Of a DNA stretch of 64,000 bases, positions 3,634 to 51,570 are shown one piece after another. Location: positions 50,428,961 to 50,492,960 of the forward strand of contig NC_092383.1 of NCBI RefSeq assembly GCF_030028105.1, in the 5' to 3' direction. Position numbers and translations under genes: made by a program. The stretch is from Mobula birostris (Eukaryota). The notes beneath the pieces were generated by a model. It was not told the DNA's origin. It saw only the letters and a list, made by a program, of their open reading frames with translations, and made no database searches. Position 1 is the stretch's first letter. Every line of letters begins with the position of its first letter.

Positions 3634-3660
3634 CTGCATCCTTTTCACGTAATTCTTCAT
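3634..3660 (-). CDS. 27-nt phase-1 micro-exon, DEELREKDA
   Basis: ttttcccgttgcag|ATGAAGAATTACGTGAAAAGGATGCAG|gtgaaa; 25/27 identical to exon 29543-29569. Confidence 0.75.
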
Positions 3661-3704
3661 CTGCAACGGGAAAATAAGCAATAATTTAAGGAAATATTTC
3701 AAAT

Positions 3705-4225
3705 CTAGTTAGGCCTTTATAAGAAGGACGTGGAAGCATTTGAAAGGGTGCAGAGAAGATTTTCGAGGTTGATGCTTGGACTAAAGGGCAAGTCTTACGA
3801 AAATAGTTTGAGGAGATTGGGGCTTTTTTCTTTGGAACGAAGGAGAATAAGATGACTTGATAAGGGTATTTAGCTGATAGAAATAATCTCGGACTCGATC
3901 ATCAGGCACCTTTTCCCTGGGCTCATGTAGCAGACACAAGGAGGCATATTTTAATAGTGATTGGAGGAACGTATGACGGGTGGATGTCAGAGGCATTGTA
4001 AGATCTTCACACAAAGGATGGTGGGTGCGTGGAACTCCCTGCCATGCGTGGTGTTAGAGGCAGGTAAATTAGTGGCATTTAGGAAACTCTTAGCCAGGCA
4101 TGTCGATGATAGAAAAATGGAGCGTAACGTAGGAGGGAATGGTTAGATTGACCTCAGTGCAGGTTAAGAAGTCGGCAGACTCGAGGGGCGAAGGACATGT
4201 ATTGTGGTGTAATGTTTTACGTTCG
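3705..4225 (+). mobile_element. Degenerate CR1 3' fragment
   Basis: Remnant FTQRMVGAWNSLP and a CR1-like 3' UTR. Confidence 0.75.
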
Positions 4226-4513
4226 ATAAATATTTTCAATATTGTCCGAGAATTTTTAACCACTGAGCTTGCGCACAGCATGAATTAGTTTAAAATATAT
4301 AAAATAAATATCTTCTGATATTATATTGGAGCGGATATGGTCTATGCTTTTCAGGATCTCATAGCAATATTATTTTATATCCTAGACGTTTCTGTCATTC
4401 TAGTGATTTCACTTTAGACAGAAGCTTATCCTCTTGCCAGGAATGGCAGGCAACATCTTCTCCGAACCTGCTCAGGCATTTAATGTTCTCTAGGCAATCG
4501 TTTAGGTTCATAC

Positions 4514-4537
4514 CATTTCTTGCACTTAGCCACAAAG
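4514..4537 (-). CDS. Candidate 24-nt phase-1 micro-exon, ALWLSARN (weak)
   Basis: tttttctacattaag|CTTTGTGGCTAAGTGCAAGAAATG|gtatga; AAG acceptor and an atypical peptide. Confidence 0.35.
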
Positions 4538-4858
4538 CTTAATGTAGAAAAATCTATCGATGCTTTGAGAATCCTTCAATGTAGTGTCTTTCAAAGCATC
4601 CGCAGACGTTTAGTAAATCATCACCAGCAGGTCAGTGAGTGACAGGAGGTTCCAAACCTTATGCTTGCCTCCATTCTGATCATTATTATTGCATGGACAA
4701 TACATTACAGTAGTATTTTTAGCACCCTCTGTGAAGTACCAGGGGGGATTTCACACACACAGGTGCCGAAATCATGATATAATCTGGACATAAACTTATA
4801 GGCAGTAGACGCGGCTAAATATTTTAAGCGGAATACTATTCTATTATAACCTTAACAC

Positions 4859-4903
4859 GTGTGTGTGTGTGTGTGTGTGTATGTGTGTGTGTGTGTGTGT
4901 GTG
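4859..4903. repeat. (GT)n microsatellite
   Basis: Direct reading; one interruption. Confidence 0.97.
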
Positions 4904-5473
4904 ACGTCATCCTGTGATCATGTACTGTTTCTGAGATACTATTGTTTCCTCCCTCATTCCAAAGACTGTTAGTTGCTCGGTAAGTAGACCAGTGGAAATT
5001 GTTCGTGTGGAGTAAGTGGTCGAAAAACATAGTTGGCGTGGTTATGAGGAATGGGTTGACTTTTTTTTTCATGTGAGAACGTATACGTTGCAGAGAAATA
5101 ACGTGGGCATGCGGACGGATGCGGTTATTCTGAGAGGTGGCATAGGCTTGTTGGGCCAAATGGCTTCCATTTATCTTGTTGAGAAAAGAATGAAAATTTC
5201 CCTGCTGGTTGAAGTTGGCTAACTATTGGAATACCATTTGAATTTGACGAGAAAGACTTTGGCAATAACAACAGATCACTCTTAGGTTTTGATCCTGTTA
5301 AAGCATGAAGGCAATATGGCAGCGATAGCTCCCCAGTCGTCAGATTAGCACCTTCGCGAAAGCACCTTTCATGAACAAATGGCAGGAAATCTACAAATAT
5401 ATAACCGTTGTTTTGAAATTTCCAAAGTAAAGCAGGAAGGTGTTTGTAAACTATTCACGAATATATACCTTAC

Positions 5474-5500
5474 CGTCTACAACGCACTTCATATTACTGT
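5474..5500 (-). CDS. 27-nt phase-1 micro-exon, DSNMKCVVD
   Basis: tttcattgttttag|ACAGTAATATGAAGTGCGTTGTAGACG|gtaagg; phase 0 has stops. Confidence 0.78.
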
Positions 5501-6175
5501 CTAAAACAATGAAATGAACAGATAAATAGTAAAAAGGGAACAGATATATTACGTTCTTGCTTTGAACATATTGTGTTTTTCAGGCACACCGATTTCGCCT
5601 CACAACCTAATGATTTGCCCATACATTCAATAGTCAGAAAACTTTGCTCCGAGAGCGACGGTAAAATGACGGAGGAGTTTTTTAGCGCGAAAGCGAGGTG
5701 CGGGAGGAAATGTGACCGATACGAGTGTTCTGCGACCTGGCATAGACTTAATGCCCAGAAAATCCTGCTCGCAAAATATACGAGTGACACAATGCAATAG
5801 TGTTAAATATAATGGCGTACTTTGCGTATAATTACTATTATTGTTACTTTCTGCTTTATCCTGTGTTTATTAAGGCAATTTTAGAAAAGTTACGATGCTC
5901 TGTTCTGGGAAGACTGATCACAATGAATTGTCGTTTTAATTCTTGAAATGATACATCTCTACCTTAGAATGGAAAGGAGAACGTAAAAAAAGTTTTGCTC
6001 GAGATTTATCCTGACTGAGAACAGACTTGCAAAACACACCAATCATACAAACGGCTCATCGTGTAAGTTTCACTGGGGAACATTTAAATATTAAAGGAAA
6101 CTGAGCAATTGATGCAGAGGTGAAATGAATGGCGCAGATAAATAATGCTGATCGATTCCTTTCGCGACAAATCAC

Positions 6176-6202
6176 CGTGGAATATCTTGCGTAAGAGAGC
6201 TT
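6176..6202 (-). CDS. 27-nt phase-1 micro-exon, EALLRKIFH
   Basis: ccttcactgagtttag|AAGCTCTCTTACGCAAGATATTCCACG|gtgatt; moderate splice sites. Confidence 0.55.
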
Positions 6203-7852
6203 CTAAACTCAGTGAAGGCGACAACACTTTACTATAACTATGTATTAGAAATAACCGAAATTTAATATTTTAGTGACAAAATCTACCATGCATTGGAGAA
6301 ACGTGTGATTTGAAAGCAGGTGCCCTGATCAAGTTGTCACCTTCTAGTCTAGGGATAGATCTGGTAATAACTTTATCCATGAAATTATCTCATGGTTTAT
6401 GGGAGAAGCAGGAGCTTAGGCCCTTACAGTCCCCCTTCCCCACATCTGCCTAATCCCGTCGATCTGCACACAGACTGTGAACTCTACACTTCTGCTCTCC
6501 ACGTACCTATCCAAATTTCTCTTCAATGTTGAAATCGAACCCAGATCCACCACTTCCGACAGCAGCTCGTTCCACATTCTCACCATCCGCTGTGTGAAGA
6601 AGTTCCTCCTCATGTTTAAAGATTTCACGTTTCACCGTTCATTTTGGAACTGAGTGGCTCAGAAGGCCAGGAGGAAAAATGATAGGGATTCTATAGTTAG
6701 AGGAGCAGACAGGGGATTCGTTGGACGTGAAAGAGATGGTATGTTGTATCTTCCAGGTGTCAGGATCAAGAATGTCTGCAGCATTCTAAGGGGGTGGGGA
6801 AGCGAGCACCGGTAAGTCGTGGGACATATAGACAACGTAGGTAAGAAAACTGACGAGGTCCTGAAGAGAGAATATAGGGAGTTAGTTAGAAAGCCGAAAA
6901 GCATAACCTCTAGGTAGTGACCTCTAAATTGATGCCTGTGCCATTCGCCGGTGAGGTTAAGACTAAGATAATTTGCCAGGTGAATGTATTGCTGAGGAAT
7001 TTGTACAGTGGGTAGGGTTTCCGATTTTGGATCATTGGGTTTTCTTCAAGGGGAACAATGACCTGTACAAAAATTATGAATTAAACCTGAACCGGAGGAA
7101 GACCAATATTCTTGCGGGCAGTTTTGCTAAAGCTATTGTGGAGGGTTTAAACTAATTTTGCAGGGGGATGGGAACCGGAGTGATAGGGCTGAGAATGGAA
7201 CAGTTACTATAACAGTTGATGTAGTGTGTAGAAGGACAGGCAGATGATATGGCAAAATTGAAGTCAGTTGGATGAGTGTACCATAGGAGCAAAATCGCAA
7301 AAGTTGACGAATACAGAATTGAAGATGTTATATTTGAAAGCACGTAGTATTCTGAATAAGGTAGATTATCTTCCATCACAGTTAGAGATTTGCAGCTATA
7401 GTGTTATGGGTAGCACTAAGTCGTGGTAGCCAGGATATTGGATAAAATTTCAAAGGAGATAGAAAAGCCACATAAACAGGATAATGTTACGATTGTCAGA
7501 GGGTTTTCAATATCAGGTAGACTGGGAAAATCAGGTTGGTGCTGGATACCAAGAGATGTAATTTGCATAAAATTCGGGTATTATTTGTTTCTCATGGCTG
7601 AACCCACTAAAGAAGAGGTAATTGTGGGTTGGATGTTGTTTAACGAACTAGGTTTGATTAGGAACCATTAAAAGACAGTGATTATAATGTGATCGAATTC
7701 ACACTCCAGTTGTGAGGGAGAATCTAAAGTCAGCAGTAGGTTAGAGTAAATGGAATTACAGAGGCTCAAGAAGGGAGCTCGTCAAAGTTGATTGGAAGGT
7801 GACACTAACGAGGATGATGGCAGAACAGAAATGGCTGGAGATTCTGGAGGAA

Positions 7853-9542
7853 CTCTGGAGGAATGGATGGAGGAACTGAGGGAAATGCATGTTAGTAGGG
7901 AAGTGGTGTTAGGTAAATTGAAGGGATTAAAGGCAGCTAAATCCCTAGGGCCAGATGGTCTGCATCCCAGAGTGCTTAAGGGATTAGCCCAAGAAATAGT
8001 GGATACATTAGTGATAATTTTTCAAAACTCTTTAGATTCTGGATTAGTTCCTGAGGATTGGAGGGTGGCTAATGTAACCCCACTTTTTAAAAAAAGGAGG
8101 GAGAGAGAAACCAGGGAATTATAGATTGGTTAGCCTAACATCGGTGGTGGGGAAAATGCTAGAGTCAGTTATCAAAGATGTGATAACAGCACATTTGGAA
8201 AACAGTGAAATCATCGGACAAAGTCTACATAGATTTGTGAAAGGAAAATCATGTTTGACGAATCTCATAGAATTTTTTCAGGATGTATCTAGTAGAGTGG
8301 ATAGGGGAGAACCAGTGGATGTGGTATATTTGGATTTTCAAAAGGCTGTCGACAAGGTCCCACACAGGAGATTAGTGTGCAAACTTAAACCACACGGTAT
8401 TGAGGGTAAGGTATTGATGTGGATAGAGAATTGGTTGGCAGACAGGAAGCAAAGGGTGGGAATAAATGGGACCTTTTCAGAATGGCAGGCAGTGACTAGT
8501 GGGGTACCGCAAGGCTCAGTACAGGGACCCCAGTTGTTTACAATATATATCAATGACTTACATGAGGGAATTAAATGCAGCATCTCCAAGTTTGCGGTTG
8601 ATACGAAGCTGGGGGGGGGGGGCAGTGTTAGCTGTGAAGAGGATGCTAAGAGCATGCAGGGTGACTTGGATAGCTTAGGTGAGTGGGCAAATTCATGGCA
8701 GATGCAATTTAATGGGGATAAATGTGAGGTTATCTACTTTGGTGGCAAAAACATGAAAACAGATTATTATCTGAATGGTGGCCAATTAGGAAAAGGAGAG
8801 GTGCAACGAGACCTGGGTGTCATTATACACCAATCATTGAAGGTGGGCATGCAGGTACAGCAGGCGGTGAAAAAGGCGAATGGTATGCTGGCATTCATAG
8901 CAAGAGGATTCGAGTACAGGAGCAGGGAGGTACTACTGTAGTTGTACAAGGCCTTGGTGAGACCACACCTGGAGTATTGTGTGCAGTTTTGGTCCCCTAA
9001 TCTGAGGAAAGGCATCCTTGCCATAGAGGGAGTACAAAGAAGGTTCATCAGATTGATTCCTGGGATGGCAGGACTTTCATATGATGAAAGATTGGATCGA
9101 CTAGGCTTATACTCGAATTTAGAAGATTGGCGCCGGGGGCGGAGGGGGGGGATCTTATTGAAACACATAGAATCCTAAAGGGATTGGACAGGCTAGAGCA
9201 GGAAGATTGTTCCCGATGTTGGGGAAGTCCAGAACGAGAGGTCACAGTTTGAGGATAAAGGGGAAGCCTTTTAGGACAGAGATGAGGAAAAACTTCTTCA
9301 CATAGAGAGTGGTGAATCTGTGGAATTCTCTGCCACAGGAAACAGTTGAGGCCAGTTCATTGGCTTTATTTAAGAGGGAGTTAGATATGGCCCTTGTGGC
9401 TAAAAGGATCAGGGGTTATGGAGGGAAGGCTGGTGCAGGGTTCTGAGTTGGATGATCAGTCATGATCATACTGAATGGCGGTGCAGGCTCGAAGGGCCGA
9501 ATGGCCTACTCCTGCACCTATTTTCTATGTTTCTATGTTTCT
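7853..9542 (+). mobile_element. Younger 5'-truncated CR1 LINE (RT and 3' UTR)
   Basis: GPDGLHPRVLK, KSCLTNL, SGVPQGS, RPHLEYCVQFWSP; (tttctatg)n tail; TSD attctgga(g/a)gaa at 7841-7852 and 9543-9554. Confidence 0.93.
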
Positions 9543-11036
9543 ATTCTGGAAGAAATTCAGTAGATGCAGGAGAGGTACATCCCAAAGAAGAAAACGTACT
9601 CCAAAGGGAGGATGACGCAATCACGGCTGACAAAGCAACTCAAAGGCAGCCTAAAAGAAAAATGAGAGGGCATATAATATTGCACAAATTAGCGGCAAGC
9701 TAGAGGATTTGGAAGCTTAAAAACAACAGAAGGAAACTAAACGTCAGAAGGGGAGAAAAGATGAAATATGAAGGTAAGCTAGCCCATAATATAAATTAAA
9801 AATGTAATAGAATTTTTTCAGATATATAAAGAGTTAAAGAGAGGTGAGAATGGATACCAGACCGCTGGAAAATGACGTCGGAGAGGTTGTAATGGGAGAT
9901 AATGAAATGGTGGTCGAACTTAAAATGTACTTTGTGTCAGTCTTCCCTGTGGAAGATACTAGCAGTATGCCAGAAATTAGAGCGTGCAGTTGCTATTACT
10001 AAGAGGAAGGTGCTTGGGAAGCTGAATGTTCTGAAGGTAAATAAGTCACTTGAACCTGATAGTCTCCACGCCAGGTCCTAAAATCGGTAGCTAAAGGGAT
10101 TATGCAGGTAGTAGCAATGATCTTCCAAGTACCACACGATTATGGATTTTTTTTCATAGGACTGGAAATTTTCAAATGTCATCCCACTCTTTAAAAAAGT
10201 ACGGAGGCACAAGAATGAATATTATATGGCAGTACACCTGACCTAACTGGTTGCAAAGGTGCTATTAAGGATGAGAATTCGGGGTACTTAGAGGAACCTG
10301 ATAAAATAGGCCAAAGTCAGGATGGTTTCTTATGGGGAAACCTTGCCTGACAAACCTGTTGGAATTATTTGAGGAAGTGACCAGCAGGATAGACAGAGGA
10401 GAGTCACTGGATGTAGTGTTCAGGTTATCGACAACGTGCTGTTCTCGAGGCAGCTTAACAAGATAAGAAAAAAATGGTAAAATGACTAACTGGCGGGAAG
10501 CAATGATTGGGAGTAAATAGGGAGTTTCTGGTAGGCGGCCGGTGGCTAGAGTTGCTAGACAGGGATCTGTTTTGGGTCCGCATTTTTTTTCACGTTATAT
10601 GTCAATAATTTCGATGAAGAAGTTGATGGCTTTTTGGTCAACTGTGTGAACAATACGAAGATAGGTGGAGTGGAATGTAGTGTTGGGGTAGTGAGAGTCT
10701 GCAGAAGGACTTAGACAGATTGGGAGAGTGGGCAAAAAGTAACTGGTAGAATATGGTGTTGGTAATTGTATGGTCATGCTCTTTGGTAAAAAGAATAAAA
10801 GTATATAAAATTTTTCTAAACATGGAGAATATTCAATAAATTAGAGGTGCAATTGGATTTGGGAGTCCTCGTGCAGGATTCCTTAAAAGGTAATCTACAA
10901 GTTGATTCAGTAGTAAGGAAGGCCAATGCAATATTAGCAATTATTTTGAGAGAACTGCAATGCAGAAGCAAAGACGTTATGCGGAGGATTTAAAAATAAT
11001 TGATCTTACTGCACTTGAGGTATGCTGAGCAGTTTA

Positions 11037-13243
11037 GACCTTAAGACCATAAGACCATAAGACAAAGGAGCAGAAGTTGGCCATTCGGCCCATTGAGTCC
11101 GCTCCGCTATTTTATCATGGGCTGATCCATTCTCCCATTTAGTCCCGTTCCCCCGCCTTCTCACCATAAACTTTGATGCCCTGGCTACTCAGATACCTAT
11201 CAATCTCTGCCTTAAATACACCCAATGACTTGACCTCCACTGCCACCCGTGGCAACAAATTCTACAGATTCACCAGCCTCGGGCGAAAAAAATTTCTTCG
11301 CATCTCTGTTCTGAATGCGTGCCCTTCAATCCTTAAGTTATGCCCTCTCGTACTAGACTCCCTCACTATGGGAAACAACTTTGCCTCATCCACTCCGTCC
11401 ATGCCTTTCAACATTCGAAATGTTTCTATGAGATCCCTCATCATTCTTCTAAACTCCAAGGAGTACAGTACAAGAGCGGTCAACGTTCCTCATATGTTAA
11501 CCCTCTCGTTCCCAGAATCATTCTAGCAAATACTCTCTGAACGCTGTCCAATGTCAGCACATCCTTTCTTAAATAAGGAGCCCTAAACCGCACACAGTAC
11601 TCCAAGTGAGGTCTTACCAGTGCCTTATAGAGCCTCGATATCACATCCCTGCTCCTATACTCTATTCCTCTAGAAATGGTTGCCAACATTGCATTCGCCT
11701 TCTTCACCACCGACTCAACCTGAAGGTTAACCTTAAGGGTATCCTACACAAGTACTCCCAAGTCCCGTTGCATCTCAGAACTTTGAATTCTCTCCCCACT
11801 TAAATAATAGTCTGCCCGTTTATTTCTTCTACCAAAGTGCATAATCATACACTTTCCAACATTGTATTTCATTTGCCACTTCTTTACCCATTCTTCCAAT
11901 CTATCCAAGTCTCTCTGCAGACTCTGTGTTTCCTCAGCACTACCGGCCCCTCCACCTATCTTAGTATCATCAGCAAACTTAGCCACAAAGCCATCTATTC
12001 CATAATCCAAATCGTTGATGTACAATGTAAAAAGAAGAGGCCCCAACATGGACCCCTGTGGAACACTACTGGTAACCGGAAGCCAACCAGAATGGGATCC
12101 CTTTATTCCTAATCTCTGTTTCCTGTCAATCAGCCAATGGTCTATCCACGTATGCAACTTTCCCGTAATTCCATGGGCTCTTATCTTTTTTAGCAGCCTC
12201 ATCTGCGGCACCTTGTCAAAAGCCATCTGAAAGTCCAAACGCACAACATCCGTTGCATTTCCCTTGTCTCACCTACTTGTAATTTGCTCAAAAAATTGCA
12301 ATAGGTTTGTCAGGCAGGATTTTCCTTTAAGGAAACCATGCTGAGTTCTGCCTATCTTGTCATTTGCCTCCAGGTACTCCGCAACCTCATCCTTGACAAT
12401 CGACTCCAACAACTTCCCAACCACCGATGTCAAGCTAGAAGGTAAATAATTTCCTTTTTGCTTTTTTGCCCCCTTCTTAAATAGCGGAGTAACATTTGCA
12501 ACCTTCCTGTCCTCCGGAAACATGCCAGAATCTATTGACTTTTGAAAGATAATTGCTAATGCCTCCGCAATCTCCACAGCTACTTCCTTCAGAACACGAG
12601 GGTGCATTCCATCTGGTCCGGGAGATTTATCTACCCTTAGACTATTCAGCTACCTGAGTACTTTCTCTGCCGTAATTGTTACTGCGCATACCTCTCTTCT
12701 CTGCCACCCTTGAGTATCTGGTGTACTGCTGATGTATTCCTCAGTGAAGACTGATGCAAAATACTCGTTCAGTTCCTCCACCATCTCCTCATCTCCCATT
12801 ACAATTTCTCCGGCATCATTTTCTCTCGGTCCTATATCTACATTCACCTGTCTTTTACTCTTTATATACTTGGAAAAGCTTTTAGTATCCTCTTTGTTAT
12901 TATTTGCTAGCTTCCTTTCATAGTTAATCTTTTCCCTCTTAATGACCTTCTTCGTTTCCTTTTGTAAGCTTTTAAAAACTTCCCAATCCTCTGTCTTCCC
13001 ACTAATTTTTGCTTCCTTGTATGCCCTCTCCTGTGCTTTAACTTTGGCTTTAATTTCTCTTGTCAGCCACGGTTGTATCCTTTTTCCATTCGAAAATTTC
13101 TTGCACCTTCCTCACTTCTCGCATGAACTCCAGCCACTGCTGCTCTGCCGTCCTTCCCGCTAGTGTCCCTTTTCAGTCAACTTTGGCCAGTTCCTCTCTC
13201 ATGCCACTGTAATTTCCTTTACTCCACTGAAATACCGACACAC
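11037..13243 (-). mobile_element. 5'-truncated CR1 LINE
   Basis: Minus-strand ORFs with HPRVLKE, VPQGSMLGP, KFADD, RPHLEYC; (gtcttatg)n tail at 11037-11062. Confidence 0.92.
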
Positions 13244-14517
13244 CGTCCCCATATGTATGAAAAAATGTGGTGGCATTAGAATGCGTGCAAAGGAAGCTCA
13301 CGAGAATGATTAAGGGAATGAACGGGTTAACATATCAGGAACTTTTGATGGTTCTAGTTCTATATCCGCTGAAGTTTACAAGGACGATGAGGATCTCATT
13401 GAAAGTTATCGAATATTGAAAGACCTAGATAGAGGGGATGTGAGGAGGATATTTTTTATAGTGCAGGAGTCTAGGACCAGAAGGCATAGCCTCAGAATTG
13501 GGCAGGCGTTTCCAAATTGGGGTCCATGGACCCCTCGCCTAATGGTATTGGTCCATGGCATTAAATTAGTTGGGAGACACTGGAATAGAGCGACGTCGAT
13601 TTAGAAAAGAGCAGGGAGGTTTTTTTTTAGCCATAGAGTAGTGAATCTGAGGAATTCATTACCATCGACGGCTGTAGAGACCAAGGCATTGGGTATATAT
13701 AAAATAGAGTTGACAATTTCTTGATTAGACAGTGAGTCAAAGGTTACGGGGAGAAGCCAGCCGAATGGGGTTGGGAGGGATGATAAAACAGCTAATGGAA
13801 TGGCGGAGCAGACTCGATGAGCTGAATCGCCTCATTGTGCTCCTCTGTCTAATAGTCTTATGGCTTTAATCTATTGTCTCCAGTTCCAGTCTCACTCAAC
13901 TTCAGTGGAAAATATCTGCTTGAATTTACTCCATCTATATCTCTCATAATTTTGTATATTTCTATCTAATCTCGCTTCATTCTCCTATGCTCCAGGGGAT
14001 AAACCCTTAACCTATTCAATTTTGCCTATAACTCAGATCCTCCCGTCCGGCAATATCCCGGTGAATTTTCTTTCACCATCTTTTCAATATATTTTTCAAT
14101 ATCTTTTTGGATATCTTAGTTATATGTATGTGACTGGAACAATTAAATATTCTTAGTTTATGTATGATGAAGGTTATAATATCCGAGATATCTAACCGTC
14201 TCTTCCACAAAGACTACAAGTGGATCCCCCACGTATACAGACTTAGGGTACGATCCTACCGTCCATTCAACCGTAAATAATTCCCTGTGACTGCTTTGCC
14301 CATGTTTATAACCAGTTCCTATTGTGAGTCCGAATTACAATCATCTTTCAGTCATATTGGGCACATCAGTTAACTGCTATCATACTCTTTGTAAAGTAAT
14401 TTTAGATGAGAATTTATTACGTGATTTAAACGGGCGGACGTTATTTCTCAATTTCCGTTTATTTTCATTATTCGTGAAATCTGACAGTTACGAAAATACT
14501 AACCTTTTCTGCCTTAC

Positions 14518-14553
14518 CTGTAAGCAGCAACAATTTTTTCAGTTTCGATAGTT
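14518..14553 (-). CDS. 36-nt phase-1 micro-exon, ELSKLKKLLLLT
   Basis: ttttctgttgacttag|AACTATCGAAACTGAAAAAATTGTTGCTGCTTACAG|gtaagg; same length and ELSK start as exon 51535-51570. Confidence 0.78.
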
Positions 14554-14929
14554 CTAAGTCAACAGAAAATCCGAGGTTTTTGTTGTGATTGAAGTTCTTT
14601 GCCTAACGTGCACTCAAATTAAATCGCAAAGAATCAGGTTATAGTTATTCCTTTCTGTCCAATTGTTCCCATAGAGGTAATTGCATTATCTTCTTAAAAA
14701 GATGGGACTTCTTGATGAAAACTGCTTGCAAAGTGATTTTGGACATGAGGTAACTGAGATTAAACGTAAAAAATGGCAATAGATTTTTCTGTCTGACTAT
14801 GCTGGTCCTTCATTTTGGCACGGTTTTCGGGTTTGCAGCAGGTTGTAAGCAGTGACCACTAGATATGATATACTTTCACGACTGACTAATGTGGTGGCAA
14901 ACCCATGATCTTTGATATGAATATAGTGT

Positions 14930-24340: not shown

Positions 24341-24344
24341 ATAA

Positions 24345-40500: not shown

Positions 40501-41156
40501 GCTACCCAGCTCACCCATGCCCCGCTTATGTTGCTTGCATGAGATTTATTGATACACCTGTTATGCAGCACCTTCTGAAATGCCTTCTGGTACTTCAAGA
40601 ACACCACATTGTACCCATTGTCCTCATGAGCTATTTCAGTTACTTCATCAGAGATTCTGAGAAGTTGACTAAACTTGACTTCTCAATAAGTTGGGTTTGC
40701 ATTGCTTTAACATATTAGATTATGAGAACACTCATTCCTCTTTTATTGTTATTTAGAAATGCATACATGCATTAAGAAATGGTACAATGTTTCTCCGGCG
40801 TGATATCACAGAAAACAAGACAGACCAAAGACTAACACTGACAAAACCATATAATTGTACCATATAGATACAGCAGTGCAAAGCAATACCATAATTTGAT
40901 GAAGAACAGTCCATAGGCACATTAAAAAAAATAGTCTCAAAGTCGCCGAGCCGATCGACTCCCGAGTCCCCGATAGCGGCGGCAAAAGTGAGAAACTCCC
41001 TGCCATAAACCCCCAGGCACCGTCAACTTGCCGTTTCCCACAAGGAGGGTAATATATTTTCCACAAGTTTTCGACAATTAAAGTAAAACTGACTGAGCTA
41101 CAGAGGTTAAGTTTATCATTGCTCCAGATGTGAACACAGGAGGCATACTTACTTGA

Positions 41157-41600
41157 CCTCATAACGTATGAGGAGCGTTTAATGGCTCTGGTCCTGTATT
41201 CGTTGGAGTTCGGAAGAATGAGGGGGTATTTCATTGAAATCTATCGAATATTAATAGGCCAAGATGGAGTGTACGTGGAGAGAATGTTTCCTCTAGTTGG
41301 GGAGTCTAGGGCGAAAGATCACAGCCTCAGAGTACAAGGTCGTTCCTTTAGTATAGAGATGAAGAGAAATTTCTTTAGCTAGAGGGTGGTGAATCTCTGC
41401 AATTCATTACTACAGACGGCTGTGTAGGCCAAGCCATTTGATATATTTAAATGGAGGTTGATAGTTTCTTGATTAGTGAGGCGTCAAGTGTTGCGGGGAG
41501 AAGGCAGGAGAATGGGTTGAAAAGGATTCAACCATGATGAAATGCCCGGGGCAAACGATGGGCCGAATGGTTGAATTCTTCTCCTACATCTTATGGTCTC
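41157..41600 (+). mobile_element. CR1 3' fragment
   Basis: LYSLEFGRMRG...EMKRNFFS plus 3' UTR. Confidence 0.85.
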
Positions 41601-41783
41601 TATACTAGGCAAGTACACACGTCTGCTCAGATGACGTTCCTTTTGATTTCAGAACTACAGGTGTACATTACAGTACAGGGTATTTGTTGAGATATTATTT
41701 TATGCTGAGAAGGTCTCTTTCTGTTCGTGAACATGTAGGAAAATAATTTTTATTTGCAATTGCGATAATTTCGAGGACTTTAC

Positions 41784-41810
41784 CTTGCTCTTTCGAATTT
41801 AATATTTCCT
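41784..41810 (-). CDS. 27-nt phase-1 micro-exon, EEILNSKEQ
   Basis: ttatgtttttctgatag|AGGAAATATTAAATTCGAAAGAGCAAG|gtaaag. Confidence 0.8.
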
Positions 41811-42514
41811 CTATCAGAAAAACATAAAATAACCAGGAAGACGGCCAATGAAAATACTGAAATTGCAGCATCGCATTCACGTTGCAGAATACATTACAAC
41901 AGTCAAACTAATAAACATGTTATTACTTAGTCTGAAATGACAAATGTTTAGTCGGTATGCAAAGGAAGAATGGGATTTTCAAATAGATAGCAATCGGTTC
42001 TTCCTCATTCCACCCCTGTTTACAGTCTGCTTACGTAATCTGCAATTATATTTCTCCTGAGGTCGATTTAACCAATTGTTGAAGAAGAACTGGCATTGAC
42101 ACATTTTCAAGAATATCTCCTCTGATGACGACGTCCTATATTAGTTATCGTGAAGTTCAAACGAATCAGATGAAGGAACGGAGCTAAGAATGAAATACGC
42201 TACAAAAGAAATAAGACAAGAAACAAGGAAAATATTGAAGTAAAAAAGAAGGAAGAACATAACGAAACGAAGCAAAGTCTGCAAAAACAAAGGAAAGGAG
42301 AGAAGGAAAAAAAAACACAAGGTAAAACAAACCTTTTCACGAAATCTTGCTCCCTAGTGATTGCACACTGCCATTCCAGAAGTAATACCAATTGTCCAGG
42401 GGTTTTTTCTCCACCTTTGTAGTAATCACCCCATGATAATTTGTTTATTGAAACACAGCGCCCTTTCGGCCCTTCGAGGCCACCACTCAGCCATCCCTCG
42501 ATCACGGGAAAACT

Positions 42515-42676
42515 TAACAATGACCAATTAACCTACTAACTCTACGTTTTGGGACTTAGGGAGGAAACAGGGGTACCCGGAGAAAACCCATGCGGAGAAC
42601 GTACATGTAGCAGTGGAAATTGAACCCAGGTCGCTGGTATTGTATAGCGTTGTGCTAACCATACGCTACCGTGTCC
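42515..42676 (-). mobile_element. tRNA-derived V-SINE-like (HE1-like) element
   Basis: A-box-like tagcgtatggtt, B-box-like gggttcaattt, core gggttttctccggg..gtttcctccc. A related fragment is on + at about 50600-50790. Confidence 0.65.
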
Positions 42677-42902
42677 TGCGATCTTTGTCCACATTAGCAG
42701 ATTATTATTTTCTTTAGCCAGTATTCCCTTCGTCATTGCATTTCCCATGCCAGATTTTAATGCTTACTGCATTAGCCCTAAAGTGTTTCTTTTTAGGGAA
42801 TCTGTTCACTTTTCAAAATACTACTTTGGTTTCTGCCTTGTTGTATTAAGAATGCCTTTGACGATCACTCAAATAAATAAAGAAACGTGTTCATTCTCTC
42901 AC

Positions 42903-42938
42903 CCAACTTGTTCACTTTCTTTGAAATATCTTCCTTTT
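42903..42938 (-). CDS. 36-nt phase-1 micro-exon, EKEDISKKVNKL
   Basis: atcttcaattccag|AAAAGGAAGATATTTCAAAGAAAGTGAACAAGTTGG|gtgaga. Confidence 0.75.
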
Positions 42939-43154
42939 CTGGAATTGAAGATCCGTTGTTGAGACTATAGAAGATTGTTTAACAACTTTGGCCACTGAGG
43001 TACCCTGTACAACTGCTTGTTCATGCAAATATCTAATCAGTCAATTACGTGGCAGCAACTCAATGCATTGAAGTCCGCGGACACGGTCAAGAGATTCAGT
43101 TGTTGTTCAGACTAAACATCAAAATATCGAACAAATGTGGTCTAAGTGACTTTA

Positions 43155-45370
43155 GACTGTAAGACATAGGAGCAGAATTAGGCCTTTCAACCCATCGACT
43201 CTCTTTTGCCATTCCATCATGGCTGATGCAGGATCCTACTCAAACCCATACACCTACCTTCACGCCATATCCTTTGATCAGGAAACAATCAAATTCTACC
43301 TTAAATGTAAGCACAAACTTGGCCTCCACTGCAGTCTGTGACAGAGTATTCCACAGATATACTATTCTCTGGCTAAAAAAGTCCTCCTTACCTCTGTTCT
43401 AAAGGGTCACCCCTCAATTTTGAGGCTGCGGATACCCCCACCATAGGAAATATCCTCTCCACGTTCACCACATCTAGACCTCTCAACATTTGATATGTTT
43501 CAATGACATCTCCCCGCATTCTTCTAAATTCCAGTGAGTACAGGCCCACAGTTGCCAAACGCTCCTCATATATTAACTCCTTCATTCCCGGAATCATTTT
43601 CGTGAACTTCCTCTGGACCCTCTCCAATGACTACACATCCTTTCTGAGTTGGGGGATCAAAACTGTTGACAATACTCTAAGTGCGGCCTGACACGTGTCT
43701 TATAAAGGATCAGCATTATCACCTTGCTTTTATATTCTATTACCCTTGAAATAAATGCCAATATTGAATTCGCCTTCTTCACCACATTCTCAACCTGTAA
43801 ATTAACCAACTGGGAGACTTGCACGAGGACTCTTAAGTCCCTCTGCACCTCTGAGGTCCTTCTGCTAAAATTCATGATGATGCATTTCCCAAAACTGTAT
43901 TCCGTCTGCCACTTTTTGTCCGTTCTTCCAATTTGTCTACATCCTGCAGAAATCGCACTGCTTCATCAGCACGACCTACCCCTCCACCTATCTTCGTATT
44001 ATCTGGAACCTTTGCCACAAAACCATCAATTCCACTATCTAGATTAGGTATAGAGGAGATGTCAGGGGTAAGTTTTTTAAGGCAGAGAGTGGTGAGTGCA
44101 TTGCTGCTTGCGAAGGTGTTAGAGGCGGATACGATAGGGTCTTTTAAGAGACTTCTGACAGGTACATGGAGATCAGAAAAATAGAGGGCTATGGGTAACC
44201 GTGAGTAATTTCTAAGGTAAGGACATGTTCGGCACAGCTTTGTGGGCCGAAGGGCCTGTATTGTACCGTAGGTTTTCTACGTTTCTATGTTTCTAGATCA
44301 TTGAAAAACGATGTGAAAAGTTACGGTCCAAATACTGACCTCTGAGGAACACCACTGGTCATTGGCAGCCAACCAGAAAAGGCCCCCTTTATTCCCGCTC
44401 GCTGCCTGCTGTCTCTCAGCTATTCTCTTATCCATGCCAGTGTATTTCCAGTAACATCACAGGATTTTATCTTGTTATGCAGCCTCATGCGTGGCACCTT
44501 ATCAAACGTCTTCTGAAAATCCAAGTAAATGACATCCACCTCCTTTTCCTCGTCCACTCTGCTTGTTACTTCCTCAAAGAACTGTAATAGATTTGTCAGG
44601 CAAGAATTCCCCTTACAGAAACCATACCGACTTTGACTTATTTTATCATTAGTTTCCAAGTTCCCTGAAACCTCATCCTTAATAATCTAGTCCAACACTT
44701 TTCGAACTATTTAGGTTAGGCTAACTGGCCTATAATTTCCTTCCTTTTGCCTTCCGCCCTTATTAAAGAGTGGAAGGACATTTGCAGTCTTCCAGTCCTC
44801 TGGGACCTTGCCAGAGGCAAGTGATTTTTGAAAGATCATGACAAATTCAACCGGTATCTCTTCTGCAACCTCCATCAGGACTCTGGGATGTAGGCCATCT
44901 GGTCCAGATGACTTATCCACCTTAAGACCTATCAGCTTGCCTCGCACCTTTTGCTCTCTAACAACAATGGCACCTACACCTACTCCCTGACACTTACGGA
45001 TCTCTGGCACAATGCTAGTGTCTTCCACTGTGAAGACAAATGCAAACTATTAACCATTAAGTTCATTTGCATTTCTTTGTCGCCCACTACTACCTCACCA
45101 ACATCATTTTCCAGTGGTCCAATATCAACTCTCTCTTCCCTTTTACTCTTTATGTAACTGAAAAAAAAACTTTCGGTATCCTGCTTTATATTATTGGCTA
45201 GTCTGCCCTCATATTGCATGTTTTCCCTTCTTATAGCTTTTTAGTTGCCTTTTGTTGGATTTTTAAAGTTTCCCAATCACCCAGCTTCCCACTCATTTTT
45301 GCTACCTTATATGACTTTCTTACAGGCCCATAGGCTTTTATGCACGTTTTTAACTTCCTTTATCAGCCAC
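43155..45370 (-). mobile_element. Degenerate CR1 with a nested + strand CR1 3' end (44045-44291)
   Basis: RT motifs in ORFs 43388-45219; nested piece has a (tttctatg)n tail and TSD tctagat at 44038-44044 and 44292-44298. Confidence 0.85.
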
Positions 45371-45559
45371 AGTTGAACTGTCTCGGCCCGAAACCTCGAA
45401 CTTTTTTTCTTTTCCTGACCAGCTGAGTTCGGTCAGCATTTTTTTGTGTGTTGCACTGAATCTCCAGCATCTGCAGAATCATGCTCATGAACATCTGAAT
45501 GTAGCCATTTATACATTAATATGCATCTACATTTCTCAACTCAAGCAATCAGCATTCAC

Positions 45560-45589
45560 CATGATTCCCTCTTTCCTCATTTATGATTT
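45560..45589 (-). CDS. 30-nt phase-1 micro-exon, EIINEERGNH
   Basis: ggttcatttaatag|AAATCATAAATGAGGAAAGAGGGAATCATG|gtgaat; moderate splice sites. Confidence 0.55.
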
Positions 45590-45713
45590 CTATTAAATGA
45601 ACCTCTCCTATAAGCTTCGAAGTTTTCGTGTGCTGGGGACTTTTAAATAATTCTCACACGTTTGGTTAAGCTGTTTTAAAGAATGCTCTGATAGATTTAT
45701 TAACTTTATTTAT

Positions 45714-46185
45714 TAGAGTGTTACCTGGGTTTTATCACCTAAGTTACAGAGAAAGGTTGAACAAGTTGAGTCTTTATTCTCTGGAACGTAGAAGGTTGAG
45801 GGGAGACTTGATAGAGGTATTTAAAATTATTAGGGAGATAGATAGAGTTGTTATGGATAGGCTTTTTCCATTGAGAGTGGGGGAGATTCAAACAAGAGGA
45901 CATGAGTTGAGAGTTAAAAGGCAAAAGTTTAGGGAAAACATGAGGGGGAACTTCCTTACTCATGAGTGGTAGCTGTGCGGAAAGAGCTTCCAGCAGAAGT
46001 GGTTGAGACAGGTTTAATGTTGTCGTTTAAAGTTAAATTGGACAGCTATATGGACATGAAAGTAATGGAGGGTTATGGGCTGAGTGCAGGTCGGTGGGAC
46101 TAGGTGAGAGTAAGAGTTCGGCACGGATTAGAAGGGCCGAGATGGCCTGTTTCCGTGCTGTAATTGTTATATAGTTATATAGTTA
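45714..46185 (+). mobile_element. CR1 3' fragment
   Basis: LSYRERLNKL..GDLIEVFKI; (ttatatag)n tail. Confidence 0.9.
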
Positions 46186-47815
46186 TTTGTTTTCCACCAC
46201 TTAAGTAGAGAATGTTACCACGTACAAAGTTCTTTGTAGTAAATATATTCCCCCCCCCAACATCTTTATTTCTTAAAGATGGGAAAATAACCCAGCGTAG
46301 CTGTCTATTCTCGATATCTAAAGTATTCATTTGCTGATGAATATAGTTTAGACGCCATGGGAGCAACGCACACATGCAACTGTAGAAACGTGAGCAAAAA
46401 AAAGGACACATAAAACTAGGGTCCTTTCAATGGAAAAAGGAAAAGAAAAAGAAAAGATTAATGAATTTGTTTGAAATTCTAGAGATGGGAAAGAAGAAAA
46501 ATTTGTTCTTAACAGCAGAAAAACATTAGTCTAAGAAGCTATCCCACTAATGCATAAGAATATTGTTGAAACCTATTTCAAAAATGTTGATATATGAAAG
46601 AGTTGAAAAGAAGAGGAAGACTGACATGAACACCTGTGGCAATTGCAGAAGGAATTCGATTCGATGGTTGGTTCCATTTGAGAACTTGCAATCTAAATTG
46701 GATCAACTAGCATATAGTGATATAGAAATGACACAACAGTAAAACAACAATCATTTAATCTGACATTCAACATGCACGTACGCTCAATGATATATTATTA
46801 TTATATATCGCTTGATATATCGCTTAGAAGTCACTCAAAGCACGAGTACTCGTGAAGCACAGCTGATGATATTGGAGCATTTTGCGAATAACGTTTACAG
46901 TACTTTTGGCTGTTTATTTTAGTCTGGCATGACATAAGTGGAAAATACATGCACTAGGTAAATTGTTAATTAGAAGTAGTTGAAACAGAGGCACCGATAA
47001 CTAACAATCTAAATTCGCTGTTCCAGGTACAATCACATGTTGTTAGCGCATTGTCTATCGATTGACGCGACTATGGAATGTGGACCTTGTTATCTCAGAG
47101 ACCTTGCTTCGTGAGAACAACTGTTACAGGATGAAATAATTTGCCTGCCTGAAACACTTTAATACAATAATATCTGCAGCTTTGGTTTTCAAGGTTGACT
47201 GTACCTTTGGATATCCTGACGACACATCTACATTAATATCTGCAAATTGAGAAACTTCGCCTCCAAACAGATGAGCTGAGGGCAAATCCAGAAAGGTAAA
47301 GGGGCAGTACAGGCAGAATAACAAAATGAACCCGCCAGGAAGATGCAATGAATAGAAGACATTGCTCCAATTGGAATCAGACCAAGGATAAATGGTGCAA
47401 GGCCATTATCGAAGGCTCACGCAAAATTTATCATAAATCAGCGAATTAACCACATAACTATATATAGGTGCAATAGAATAGAATTTGACAAATCTTATGG
47501 CCAAATGGCATCGTTATGAGTTAGGCATTTTAGGGTACATATTTATATAAGATGATATGTAAAATGACAAAAAAAGACAAGGTCTTAAAACATAGGTACA
47601 TGAGCAAGTAGTTCGAGTCTTCGTGCCTGCTGTTCGATAGGATTATGTGTTGTTATGTAATGGGTTGCCAAGGATTTGTCTGAAAATAGGCTACAGATAA
47701 GCCATTCTGGTGTACATCCGTGTTCACTACCAATATCTGTTTCCAATAAAATCTCTTTCTGCTCATATTTACGGCAAGTTCGTGATAATGGAGCATCTAA
47801 TTGAATCGACATTAC

Positions 47816-47842
47816 CCGCTTCTGTCAAAAACTGTTTATCCT
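47816..47842 (-). CDS. 27-nt phase-1 micro-exon, EDKQFLTEA
   Basis: ccctacttatatccatgtag|AGGATAAACAGTTTTTGACAGAAGCGG|gtaatg. Confidence 0.72.
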
Positions 47843-48045
47843 CTACATGGATATAAGTAGGGAATAGTTATGCTCAGTTCCAGCAACTCAATCATAATCA
47901 TATCAAGATAACAAAAATCAAAGAACTTTTACCGAGCTTCTTTGTTTATTCCAAAGTTTATTGTTAGAATTTGAAGTACAGAAAACAGAAAATACAGATC
48001 AACTCTGACAATTTCTGCATCTATTCTTGCGATTTTCATTTTTAC

Positions 48046-48057
48046 CTGGTAATAGTT
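48046..48057 (-). CDS. Candidate 12-nt phase-1 micro-exon, ELLP (weak)
   Basis: ttgataatttaccag|AACTATTACCAG|gtaaaa. Confidence 0.35.
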
Positions 48058-48356
48058 CTGGTAAATTATCAATATATAAGAAGCAGAAACATTCAACTTC
48101 TATTGAACTTATGTAGTTCATAAATTGCCTGAAGGCACGAGGTCAAAGAGATTGTCGGACGGATGGATGGGTATTTGGCAATGCTGGGAGTCCCTGTGCA
48201 TGGGCACTTCTAATATATGTCCTGAATGGGGTGGGGGAGAACTCGATCATCATTTAGGTTCACATTAAACTATTGAGTGCAAGGTAACTATATGAACTGA
48301 ATGATAAATCTCATTGTTGAGGGGCACAATATTGTTTCCATTATGTAAGTATTTAC

Positions 48357-48383
48357 CTGCAGCTTTAAGTTTTTCTTCAAATA
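48357..48383 (-). CDS. 27-nt phase-1 micro-exon, VFEEKLKAA
   Basis: ttattttttataaattgcag|TATTTGAAGAAAAACTTAAAGCTGCAG|gtaaat. Confidence 0.8.
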
Positions 48384-49423
48384 CTGCAATTTATAAAAAA
48401 TAAAGAAACAAGTGTCGGTGTTAAGTCTAAAACGTGTTAAATAAAGCCAACAGGGATCAATACATTAAACATTATTACCGGGAGGAATAATAATAAATGT
48501 ATTGTCGTGATGGCAATACAAAACAGTATTATAAAAAATCCAAAATTGAATATAATATAAATAACAGCGCCAATAATACCCGACATTAATAACCGTGCAA
48601 ATAATATTAACAAGAAGGATAACACTAAATCCATGCAATAAAATATAATTAATCGTACTACCGTTAATGGTAATAACGGTGGCATAGATTTCATTGGCAG
48701 GGTCTAAGCCATTGCACAATTACATGCGTGGCTACCGCCAATAACCTTTACGCCAGGTATTTCACGTAGCTATTTGCAGAGAATGTGTAAGTTGTCTAAC
48801 AGAAAATAGGAAGGAAAATGAAACAGAGAGATTTGGAACAAAATTTAACGTGCTTGGAGTCATCAACAGTGTTATGCTATCCCTGCACTTTACTGCAAAA
48901 ATTTAGAATAACCGCAAATGCTGGCAATCTAAAATAAAAACAGAAAATGCTGGAAATGCTTAGTAGGACAGGATGCAACTGCAAAAGAAGAAACAAGCCT
49001 TCTCACGCTCGATCAAATGCCTCCACTTTTAGTTTCCACATCGCTCCACCTGTCTCGTATAATTTTTACTGTTTGTCTACCTCCATCTACGAACCACTTC
49101 ACTTTCTTTCATTTCCATACTAGTCCTCTCTCCTACCTGACACAATGCTCCATTACATTTCACCGTTTCACCGCCTGCCTCCCCCGCCCAGTTTCACCAG
49201 TTTTCTCAAGCTGCGATCTAATCCACCCCTGCACCGAGACAGTATATCAAGCAGAAATTACGACTCCCTTCACCATTAATAATGCTATTTATGCAATTGA
49301 TGGTATCTTATTTTACCGACAGACACTGTTTCCTTGAAGTTCCACAGAGAAATATTATAATTGGGCTTTATTTCTGTTATGGTATCAAATGTCAATAGTA
49401 ATTCTCGGAATTTCGTACAAGCA

Positions 49424-50175
49424 CGTCCAGCCCCTGTGAGGGATACTGACTCGGAGGATGATGACTGGGATAGTTGGTACATTCTGCTGTTCGCTGATGC
49501 TACGGCGATGGAGGAAAAGACTCCTGCCCTTTCCCCCACTGGATTAGTGAGGGGTTTCCGCCAGAGAAAGCAGGATCTCCCAGTGGCCACACATTTTAAT
49601 TCCACGTCCCATTCCCATTCCGATTGTCTATCCACGGCCTCCTCTACTGTCAAGATGAAGCCACACTCAAGTTGGAGGAACAACACCTTATTTCGTCTCC
49701 AACCTGATGGCGTGAATACTGACTTCTCTAACTTCCGTTAATGCCCCTCCTCCCCTTCACACCCCATCCCTTATTTATGTATGTATGTATGTATTTATTT
49801 ATTTATTTAATATACTGTTTTAAATATATTTTTTTATTTTTTCCCCTTTTCTTTCTCTCTCTCTTTTTTCTCCCTCTGTCCCTCTCAGTATAGCTCCTTG
49901 ACTGCTTTCCACCCTCCGGGATCTCCTCCCCCCTTCTCTTTCTCCCCAGGCTTCCCGTCCTATGATCCTCTTCCTTCTCCAGCTCTTAGCTCCATCCCGC
50001 CCTCTCCTGTCTTCTCCTATCATTTCGAATCTCCTTCTCCCCCTCCCACTTTCAAATCTCTTACTAGCTCTTCTTTCAGTTAGTCCTGACGAAGGGTCCC
50101 GGCCCGAAGCGTCGCCTGTACCTCTTCCTAGAGAATGCTGCCTGGCCTGCTGCGTTCACTTGACATGCGATGTCG
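49424..50175 (+). mobile_element. Gypsy fragment (about 49424-49556) fused to a Penelope 3' fragment (about 49557-50175)
   Basis: PAPVRDTDSEDDDW matches 54300-54420 inverted; RQRKQDLPVATHFN matches the Penelope GIY-YIG end near 55280. Confidence 0.85.
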
Positions 50176-50439
50176 TCAGGTTTTAATGCAGCCCCACTTT
50201 CACAACTGTCATTTAATGAATTGTTTTTTTGTGTTACCAACCACTAGAATTTTATTTTCGTTGGAACGCCAGCCGGATAAGGAAAGGACAGCTGATTAGC
50301 CGTCTATCATTTGTCTTTACTGATGGAAGATGTAGACGATCCCTTTCGATGAGTAAGGAGATGGGAAGTTTACTGAATATGCAGAGGAATAGCATGTTAT
50401 TCGTGCAATGTGCTCGATTACATCAACAGCAAGGATTAC

Positions 50440-50466
50440 CTTTGATTTTCTGAATGCATTGTCCAT
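50440..50466 (-). CDS. 27-nt phase-1 micro-exon, DGQCIQKIK
   Basis: aattgtcgtaaacag|ATGGACAATGCATTCAGAAAATCAAAG|gtaatc. Confidence 0.68.
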
Positions 50467-51534
50467 CTGTTTACGACAATTTCCATAAATAAATAGACAG
50501 AATACTGACAATTAAACTCAAACTTCCGTATTTCCATATTTCCCCCGTAATTATACTTAATTTGATGATTTTTATAAACTTGGTCTTATTCAATGAAGTC
50601 TGCGGTTAGAATGGCGGAGATCTGAGTTCAATGCCCGCGTCCTCTGCAGGGAGTCTCTGAAAGTCGACCTCTCCGTAGAATGTGTGGATTTTCTTCAGGT
50701 GCTCCGGTTTCCTCCCGCAGTCAAAAGCCGTACTAGCTAATAGGTTAATTAGTCATTCTAAATGATCAGGCAACGATTACATCGGGGTTGTCGGGATAAA
50801 TGAAAAATAACAGAGAAATGGCCAGCAGATCAGTCTGTACCCATTACGAGAAAGAAAACAAAAAACTGAGGCGCTATCACTTCTGAGTTAATGCAGTCAC
50901 CTTCCGCCTTGTTGGGCATAGTCTGTAGGAACGGGTCTCTCCACTTCAACAGTCATTCAATTTCAATAATATAAGTAATCAAGGCTTATACTCAGTCCAT
51001 GGTTTCATGTTTCTTCGCTATTTTAGTGGAGGAAATTATAGACAGCTTTTCTGCCCTCTGTTATTAGTTATCCTAGGGAAACTCTTATAACTGTTCTTGG
51101 ATAGTGCTTACTACATTTGAATCCAGATGATCCAGGTTTACCTCAAAGCATAATTTAAAGCATTCATCCTGCAGACGAGTTTATTTAATGAATCAGCACT
51201 GGGTCAATGTTCCGGTACTGACCAGTTGGGGTATCAGAATTTACCAGCATCTTAGAGTAATTGCAAAAGCTGCGTATTAATTCATTTCATTAGAGAATAA
51301 TCGGGATGAACAAATGTAATCTTATTTAGGAACTATTTGATGGCGAATAATTATTCATCGGGTGTTGATTGTGAAAGATAATATTCTGCAACATACACTG
51401 CATGGACTACACTGTGACTGAAAATTGCAATTTCCGGAGAGCAATTTAGGACTCGACGCTATGGGCGTTGATTGCGCAGCTGAGTTGAGTTATCTCTTCC
51501 ATGAGAGATGGTCATTCCCAATCTAACCTCTCAC

Positions 51535-51570
51535 CTGCATCGTCCAATTGGTTCTTCATTTTGCTAAGTT
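51535..51570 (-). CDS. 36-nt phase-1 micro-exon, ELSKMKNQLDDA
   Basis: tgtgtttttcctcag|AACTTAGCAAAATGAAGAACCAATTGGACGATGCAG|gtgaga. Confidence 0.82.

Follow-up and report, generated by a model that had tools for sequence, protein, structure and literature searches.

The stretch of DNA described here is a 64,000-nucleotide (nt) window of the 4.0-Gb genome of the ray Mobula birostris (G000:C18:50428961-50492960), in which 15 micro-exons lie on the minus strand. The whole window probably belongs to a single minus-strand gene of ~695 kb, in which more than 100 micro-exons would encode a coiled-coil rod that ends in a B30.2 domain. Positions are given in the window or, beyond its ends, as extended coordinates (genome position minus 50428960). 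An initial annotation had proposed 14-16 symmetric phase-1 exons across 48 kb. That such exons belong to a real gene is borne out by the array, its reading frame and homologous models, but their number was far too low: there are more than 100, over about 0.7 Mb.

Micro-exons in the window

Both strands of the window were searched for AG...GT segments of 9-60 nt, each of which was scored with a crude generic position weight matrix (PWM), which uses approximate frequencies from general knowledge and is not MaxEntScan. The strict setting was an acceptor score of ≥4 and a donor score of ≥3. All 14 minus-strand AG/GT-bounded segments of the initial annotation were relocated in place, with their exact sizes (nine of 27 nt, three of 36 nt and one each of 30 and 24 nt, 405 nt in sum). 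G is the last base of all of them, phase 1 is open in all and phase 0 closed in eight, and re-tabulation agrees that the first base is A in 13. The ordered exon list stands for these members, but a strong 36-nt exon at 28649-28684 is absent from it.

All eight strict candidates on the minus strand are 27 or 36 nt long, compared with none of the five on the plus strand (10, 13, 15, 35 and 53 nt). Dinucleotide shuffles of 2-kb blocks (n = 40) gave a mean of 0.275 strict 27/36-nt candidates and a maximum of 2. The minus-strand excess of 27- and 36-nt segments over plus-strand and shuffled sequence, which had been proposed as a check, is thus present in both the PWM scan and the shuffle test. The least certain exons are the two with the weakest acceptors (Table 1).

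Extent of the array

A continuous 818 kb was examined, from -200 to +618 kb in extended coordinates. In a scan of 664 kb with locally repeated sequence masked and a splice sum of ≥9, lengths of 27 or 36 nt account for 45 of 70 candidates on the minus strand and for 0 of 24 on the plus strand. Seeds chosen by splice score and length only are open in phase 1 in 53 of 53 cases, compared with 24 and 21 of the 53 in the other frames. An exon model trained on the array and applied with leave-one-out returned 110 minus-strand and 2 plus-strand candidates between -187 and +510 kb, and no minus-strand candidates between +510 and +618 kb.

The 118 exons of the resulting catalogue (27 nt in 63, 36 nt in 46 and other lengths in nine) amount to ~1,196 codons and span ~678 kb, with a median intron of 3.3 kb. 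Lengths besides 27 and 36 nt separate poorly between the strands (24 minus against 11 plus before overlap removal). Two catalogued 27-nt exons, at +360291 and +212813, have GC donors, and the exon pattern becomes less regular toward the 3' end. Of the 664 kb, which contain no N, 58% is multi-copy locally. In the window, the introns are filled by broken open reading frames (ORFs) of what look by eye to be L1-like, CR1/L2-like, RTE-like, Penelope-like and LTR/Gypsy-like retroelements, at 612-3514 (+), 8078-13111, 18857-21566, 35216-38518, 54924-57572 and 57735-61349.

A predicted rod built from a three-heptad unit

The two main exon lengths tend to alternate. A 36-nt exon neighbors a 27-nt exon at 83 of 108 adjacent positions, where shuffling the order gives a mean of 53.2 and none of 10,000 shuffles reaches the observed value; the longest strictly alternating run is 20. 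A pair of 36 + 27 nt makes 21 residues, which is three heptads. In the 36-nt exons, large hydrophobic residues occupy codons 2, 5 and 9 (frequencies 0.96, 0.89 and 0.85), and in the 27-nt exons codon 4 (0.76). They thus fall at 2, 5, 9 and 16 of the 21-residue pair, where position 12 often has a small residue and position 19 is mostly Lys. Read from the sequence, this is the pattern of heptad a and d positions over three predicted heptads. A Fourier analysis of a 32-exon stretch peaks at a period of 3.5; the whole, incomplete chain gives a weaker peak near 7. The heptad register is preserved at 79 of 108 junctions, and the codon split by the junction is Glu or Asp at 93 of 117.

One pair of duplicate exons differs by three synonymous changes only. 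No similarity was found between the introns flanking duplicated exons, which marks the duplications as old. Separately, a Cys-containing exon type occurs in three copies (window 32055 and 5500, and extended -77946), two of which are followed by near-identical 27-nt exons (29569 and 3660). These copies point to a putative higher-order, multi-exon repeat near the 3' end.

Since all the exons are symmetric, skipping any of them would keep the reading frame, but only the skipping of a 36+27 pair would keep the heptad register. The combinatorial length variation foreseen in the initial annotation is therefore probably limited, by the register and not by the frame. Loss of a single 9- or 12-residue exon should shift the register like a 5- or 2-residue insertion, types described as demanding or helix-breaking in coiled coils (PMC4786415).

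The terminal B30.2 exon

The flanking B30.2 exon that had been suggested was found 186 kb downstream of the window, with an intact frame, a phase-1 acceptor and a 27-nt exon before it. A 27-nt phase-1 exon just upstream of the B30.2 exon is typical of butyrophilin (BTN) and TRIM genes. The SPRY part matches PF00622 with 54.1 bits against a cut-off of 26.3, and the best PDB match of the B30.2 profile is the B30.2 domain of BTN3A1 (E = 6e-31). There is no match of the exon to PRY (PF13765), and two of seven family proteins give sub-threshold matches to it; the PRY region does align to BTN3A1 from profile position 3. An AlphaFold model of the exon, made from an eight-row alignment, reached a predicted local distance difference test (pLDDT) score of 46 and was not used.

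A custom profile search found only this one B30.2 exon within the 818 kb. In the ray's own genome the next-scoring match is 32% identical (E = 5e-27), and none of the near-full-length matches listed exceeds 43% identity. The longer proteins that match the exon are all of TRIM or BTN type, at 33-44% identity.

Homologues and a paralogue

Contrary to the initial annotation, in which no homologue was recognized, there are homologues among the rays and sharks and in a chimaera. Orthologues of the B30.2 exon occur in the stingray Hypanus sabinus (92% identity; a 173-residue model of the last exon only, called 'TRIM69-like'), the electric ray Narcine (68%) and Scyliorhinus torazame (58%). Two Narcine isoforms, of 289 and 280 residues, differ by nine residues that match the penultimate 27-nt exon of the ray gene. 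The N-terminal 117 residues of the Narcine model P0127 chain in order onto seven exons, including the window exons at 32055 and 3660, with a score of 175 against 37 on the plus strand and a maximum of 117 in 100 shuffles. A plus-strand 27-nt exon-like segment at extended -107955 resembles P0127 residues 59-66 and lies in the interval where the exon for these residues is expected; it reflects either chance or a small inversion.

Paralogues in Narcine, S. canicula, Leucoraja, Cetorhinus and Callorhinchus emerged from a profile search over 1.84 billion representatives. Among the family is a 1,697-residue chimaera protein from C. milii (XP_042192744.1, P0206), named 'nuclear-pore anchor-like', in which coiled-coil-like sequence is joined to a B30.2 domain of the same clade; since it falls with paralogues in the tree, it counts as a homologue of the ray gene without being an established orthologue. 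Other automatic names on fragments of the family are 'TRIM69-like', 'TRIM39-like' and 'zinc-binding protein A33-like'. The RefSeq isoform sets of the homologues, which presumably rest on RNA data, have internal gaps of 9 and 6 residues; the in-frame skipping that had been predicted is thus seen in related genes.

In a 41-row tree with a midpoint root, 16 chondrichthyan B30.2 domains form one clade (support 100/99), apart from 25 TRIM/BTN-type outgroup rows taken from hit lists. The clade is distinct from the sampled TRIM and BTN domains and was found here only in cartilaginous fishes. The family is thus chondrichthyan-wide, and not narrowly lineage-specific as the initial annotation had it.

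A second gene with the same architecture is present in the ray genome on the plus strand of C6 (G000:C6:189801522-189866735; L092, L094-L101), with a micro-exon region of about 63 kb. The model trained on the C18 array finds 22 exons of 27 or 36 nt on the plus strand there and none on the minus strand. Nineteen of its micro-exons map in order onto Narcine P0270, the model of its orthologue, with a score of 505 against 17 on the minus strand, 164 in reversed order and a shuffle maximum of 174, and 16 of the 18 junctions are separated by exactly the one residue of the split codon. This mapping is the strongest control. The B30.2 domain of the C6 gene is 70% identical to that of P0270. The 27/36-nt phase-1 exon structure upstream of a B30.2 domain of this clade is therefore present in two genes of the ray genome.

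The C6 paralogue lies among many B30.2 exons, ~10 Mb from major histocompatibility complex (MHC) class I genes. Among 19 MHC class I matches, 17 are on C6, the others on an unplaced contig and none on C18, and MHC linkage of the C18 locus was dropped as an idea. A search for MHC class II returned nothing and is uninformative.

Transcript evidence

A search of sequencing runs with the B30.2 exon gave no run recorded as RNA among the matches listed, and five of eight runs contained small shares. Four runs were aligned to the B30.2 region. Run X2, which is RNA by guess and from a related organism, has a contig of 1,943 letters whose alignment ends at the B30.2 acceptor (place 3657), its 803 further letters departing from the genome there; in run X3, whose kind is not on record, a contig reads on into the intron. 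The X2 contig, one contig from one study, would fit splicing onto upstream exons in the related species.

Table 1. Features of the C18 locus. Positions are window positions or, where signed, extended coordinates; scores are those of the PWM, and P0127 is the Narcine orthologue model.
Feature	Position	Strand	Evidence or remark
94 catalogued micro-exons upstream of window	+507711 to +67739	-	
Whole window, probably inside the gene, which extends past both ends	1..64000	-	
36-nt phase-1 coiled-coil micro-exon (predicted)	51535..51570	-	acceptor 5.9, donor 6.6
27-nt phase-1 micro-exon, weak acceptor, least certain	50440..50466	-	acceptor -6.6, donor 3.8
27-nt phase-1 micro-exon	48357..48383	-	strict window scan
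27-nt phase-1 micro-exon	47816..47842	-	window scan and trained exon model
30-nt phase-1 micro-exon, weak acceptor, least certain	45560..45589	-	acceptor -7.7, donor 2.5
36-nt phase-1 micro-exon	42903..42938	-	scan and trained exon model
27-nt phase-1 micro-exon	41784..41810	-	strict window scan
24-nt phase-1 micro-exon	32032..32055	-	match to P0127 residues 9-15
27-nt phase-1 micro-exon	29543..29569	-	near-duplicate of 3634-3660, 2 differences
36-nt phase-1 micro-exon, not in earlier ordered list	28649..28684	-	strict window scan
27-nt phase-1 micro-exon	15881..15907	-	strict window scan
36-nt phase-1 micro-exon	14518..14553	-	similar to P0127 residues 47-57
27-nt phase-1 micro-exon, modest splice sites	6176..6202	-	window scan
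27-nt phase-1 micro-exon	5474..5500	-	similar to P0127 residues 8-15
27-nt phase-1 micro-exon	3634..3660	-	match to P0127 residues 17-24
13 catalogued micro-exons downstream of window	-3240 to about -161000	-	
Penultimate 27-nt exon	-170010..-169984	-	
Terminal B30.2 exon	-186865..-186345 (L039:3135-3655; G000:C18:50242095-50242615)	-	

Weighing the gene model

The architecture of a micro-exon rod joined to a terminal B30.2 domain is very probably correct as described. Several observations weigh against the gene model. No spliced read was seen across any window exon, and no read or contig was seen to join two micro-exons of the C18 gene. Of the 15 window exons just 10 are in the catalogue, which also has at least one entry that is likely false (+161235, where the junction makes a stop); the true number of exons is for these reasons probably 120-170. 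The annotated orthologues are short (173 and 280/289 residues), and none of 271 candidates is a longer protein matching residues 1-120 of P0127. The long chimaera protein P0206 falls in a paralogous subclade, not with the ray gene, and its hydrophobic periodicity is weak. Finally, the leader scans did not establish the start codon of the gene.

Upstream, the array extends no further than +507.7 kb, and a Bcl-2-family gene, presumably BAK1, has its two 3'-most exons at about +610 kb on the minus strand (L064:537-717 at +611.6 kb and L090:1679-1930 at +609.9 kb; PF00452, E = 1e-17). A Plectin/S10 domain exon at L068:5749-6024, also minus, is probably RPS10. BAK1 and the S10 exon together suggest the block found at human 6p21.31 beside the MHC, here on C18. 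Between BAK1 and the array, at +571 to +578 kb, lies a repeat-poor, CpG-rich patch (observed/expected up to 1.04) with no Pfam match, which is a possible promoter or non-coding first exon.

In the interval next to the array, candidate 5' exons with fair splice sites lie at +517664-517723, +515786-515873, +515125-515147, +514806-514836 and +509588-509604. The last four (88 + 23 + 31 + 17 nt) can be linked to the first micro-exon with frames open throughout, and they encode a hydrophobic stretch. These candidates bear on a variant of the model, compatible with it, in which the same exons are preceded by a signal peptide or membrane anchor. Two family members have a hydrophobic N-terminal segment, P0206 (12-residue hydropathy 2.93) and the skate protein P0274 (2.66), which would agree with such a start; five other family models have none, though they may be partial. 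The ATG in the 23-nt candidate exon would give a soluble start, the leader-exon scans were not significant, and hydrophobic ATG-to-donor frames occur within the array at the background rate (27 distinct donors on the minus strand, 25 on the plus). We regard an anchored or secreted rod as possible but doubtful.

The array might also be divided into at least two transcription units. Alternatively, transcription from an internal promoter might normally link the B30.2 exon to no more than the last few micro-exons, leaving the upstream ~90 exons as a separate coiled-coil gene. The short RefSeq orthologue models, the mere 63 kb or so of micro-exons in the C6 paralogue and the less regular pattern near the 3' end would all suit such a division. 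However, phase and exon classes are uniform along the array, no second B30.2 exon was found within the 818 kb, no large non-repeat terminal exon stood out among the scan results listed, and the 1,697-residue chimaera model means that long forms are annotated in the family. A split gene is therefore rather unlikely.

A further reading, a butyrophilin or TRIM gene of the ordinary kind whose tail is extreme and whose immunoglobulin (Ig) or RING exons are either past the BAK1-like gene or absent from the assembly, is very unlikely. The affinity to BTN3A1 among solved structures, and to TRIM and BTN proteins among the annotated long relatives, speaks for it. However, a TRIM profile for RING/B-box reached at best E = 0.26 over both strands of the 818 kb, where held-out controls matched in nine of nine cases, and a profile from seven BTN proteins gave no Ig match over the same sequence, in this case without a held-out control; the flanking Ig-V exon that had been envisaged is thus not found there. 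Pfam detects no RING, B-box or Ig in 103 unmasked upstream ORFs, nor do any of the seven family proteins tested contain one. A tblastn search with 129 proteins gave only the B30.2 exon and repeat matches, with no RING, B-box or Ig exon. Neither Ig nor RING/B-box was found over 110 kb at the C6 paralogue, and the 664 kb counted on C18 have no N in which such exons could be missing. Pfam searches of 76 ORFs, mostly the longest of 394 at sampled upstream loci, gave Bcl-2, S10 and retroelement domains, and of 135 ORFs located either downstream of the gene or upstream of the C6 paralogue, the 55 searched gave no match.

That the array is a decaying relic or a chance pattern is hardly credible: some exons do have weak acceptors, but the same frame is open in all 53 seeds, the B30.2 exon has an intact frame with 92% identity to the stingray protein, one pair of duplicate exons differs only by synonymous changes, and chance is excluded by the strand and length excess, the trained-model counts and the shuffles.

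A proposed rod with paired heads

In the preferred model, of a single long gene, repeated duplication of a 36+27-nt module would have given rise to the more than 100 symmetric phase-1 micro-exons. One transcript would join the whole array, and splicing of the exons would yield a coiled-coil rod with a minimum of about 1,200 residues, which at the rise of 0.15 nm per residue of a coiled coil corresponds to ~180 nm. The rod would end in a 27-nt linker exon and then the divergent B30.2 (PRY-SPRY) domain. If the chains pair as a parallel coiled coil, the rod may serve as a long spacer, tether or scaffold that presents paired B30.2 binding heads, a role for which we consider the chances about even. 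The predicted protein would resemble the cytoplasmic tail of a butyrophilin or BG protein without the Ig head, and no E3 ligase activity is expected, since no RING or B-box was found.

The length of the rod would be set by exon duplication over evolution and by exon skipping within an animal. Skipping of a 36+27 pair would give a shorter rod that stays in register, and skipping of a single exon a kink or hinge; single skips may indeed make hinges, since they occur in the homologous models.

Relation to known systems

The comparison with heptad tails of BG and butyrophilin proteins made in the initial annotation is the right one; triadin and the schistosome micro-exon genes look like analogies only. 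The chicken BG tail is a cytoplasmic coiled coil whose 13-36 exons measure 21 or 24 nt and begin with a split codon, the number of exons varies between genes, and zipper protein, a soluble BG tail, regulates actin-myosin (PMC4046983, PMC5938342). The ray gene shares with BG a coiled coil made from many tiny exons with a split first codon. However, BG has one heptad per 21-nt exon and carries signal, Ig-V and transmembrane (TM) exons, with no B30.2 described there, whereas the ray gene has a 36+27-nt three-heptad unit, more than 100 exons and a terminal B30.2 exon, and no Ig-V exon was found. None of the 118 catalogued exons is a 21-nt single-heptad exon of the BG type.

Butyrophilins (BTN1/2/3 and ERMAP) have heptad repeats followed by a terminal B30.2 domain (PMC4046983, PMC12841164). 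The likeness extends to the placement of the heptads on small phase-1 exons and to BTN3A1 as the best PDB match. The ray gene differs in having no detected IgV or IgC, about 170 or more heptads compared with a few, and a B30.2 domain of a separate clade. It resembles TRIM proteins in the order of coiled coil and PRY-SPRY; unlike them, it has no RING or B-box that could be found, and its coiled coil is made of micro-exons.

Enterophilins, from guinea-pig enterocytes, combine a long leucine zipper with a B30.2 domain and lack Ig and TM segments. If the ray protein is soluble, they are its nearest architectural analogue among headless forms, although they are mammalian and much shorter, and the likeness was probably derived independently. 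Enterophilin-1 has been linked to SNX1 and EGFR trafficking (PMC13749957). Three ESM Atlas clusters of long proteins (1,579, 1,277 and 1,802 residues) have SPRY in 100% of their members (scores 0.92, 0.90 and 0.79). With their automatic names and chordate taxa, they are leads only with regard to the ray clade, but such long SPRY-only chordate proteins suggest that similar architectures sit under generic annotation names.

Significance

In the literature, mainly open-access texts without supplements, no description of this chondrichthyan B30.2 family was found. A very large, apparently intact gene has been reduced by annotation to its last exon, the 173-residue stingray model, and standard annotation catches the shark-ray-chimaera family only in fragments. 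Tentatively, this would be an undescribed B30.2 family without Ig or RING heads in chimaeras and elasmobranchs. Its ~700-kb ray gene, with perhaps 120-170 micro-exons, might make a rod of ~200 nm, adjustable in three-heptad steps by paired skipping and hinged by single skipping: a splice-programmed molecular ruler with immune-type heads, perhaps anchored in a membrane or secreted.

The avian BG tail has long been an oddity, and the ray gene provides a second, more extreme micro-exon coiled coil. It makes testable how long runs of micro-exons are spliced over multi-kilobase introns, and whether splicing respects the register of the coiled coil. [quoted passage not shown]

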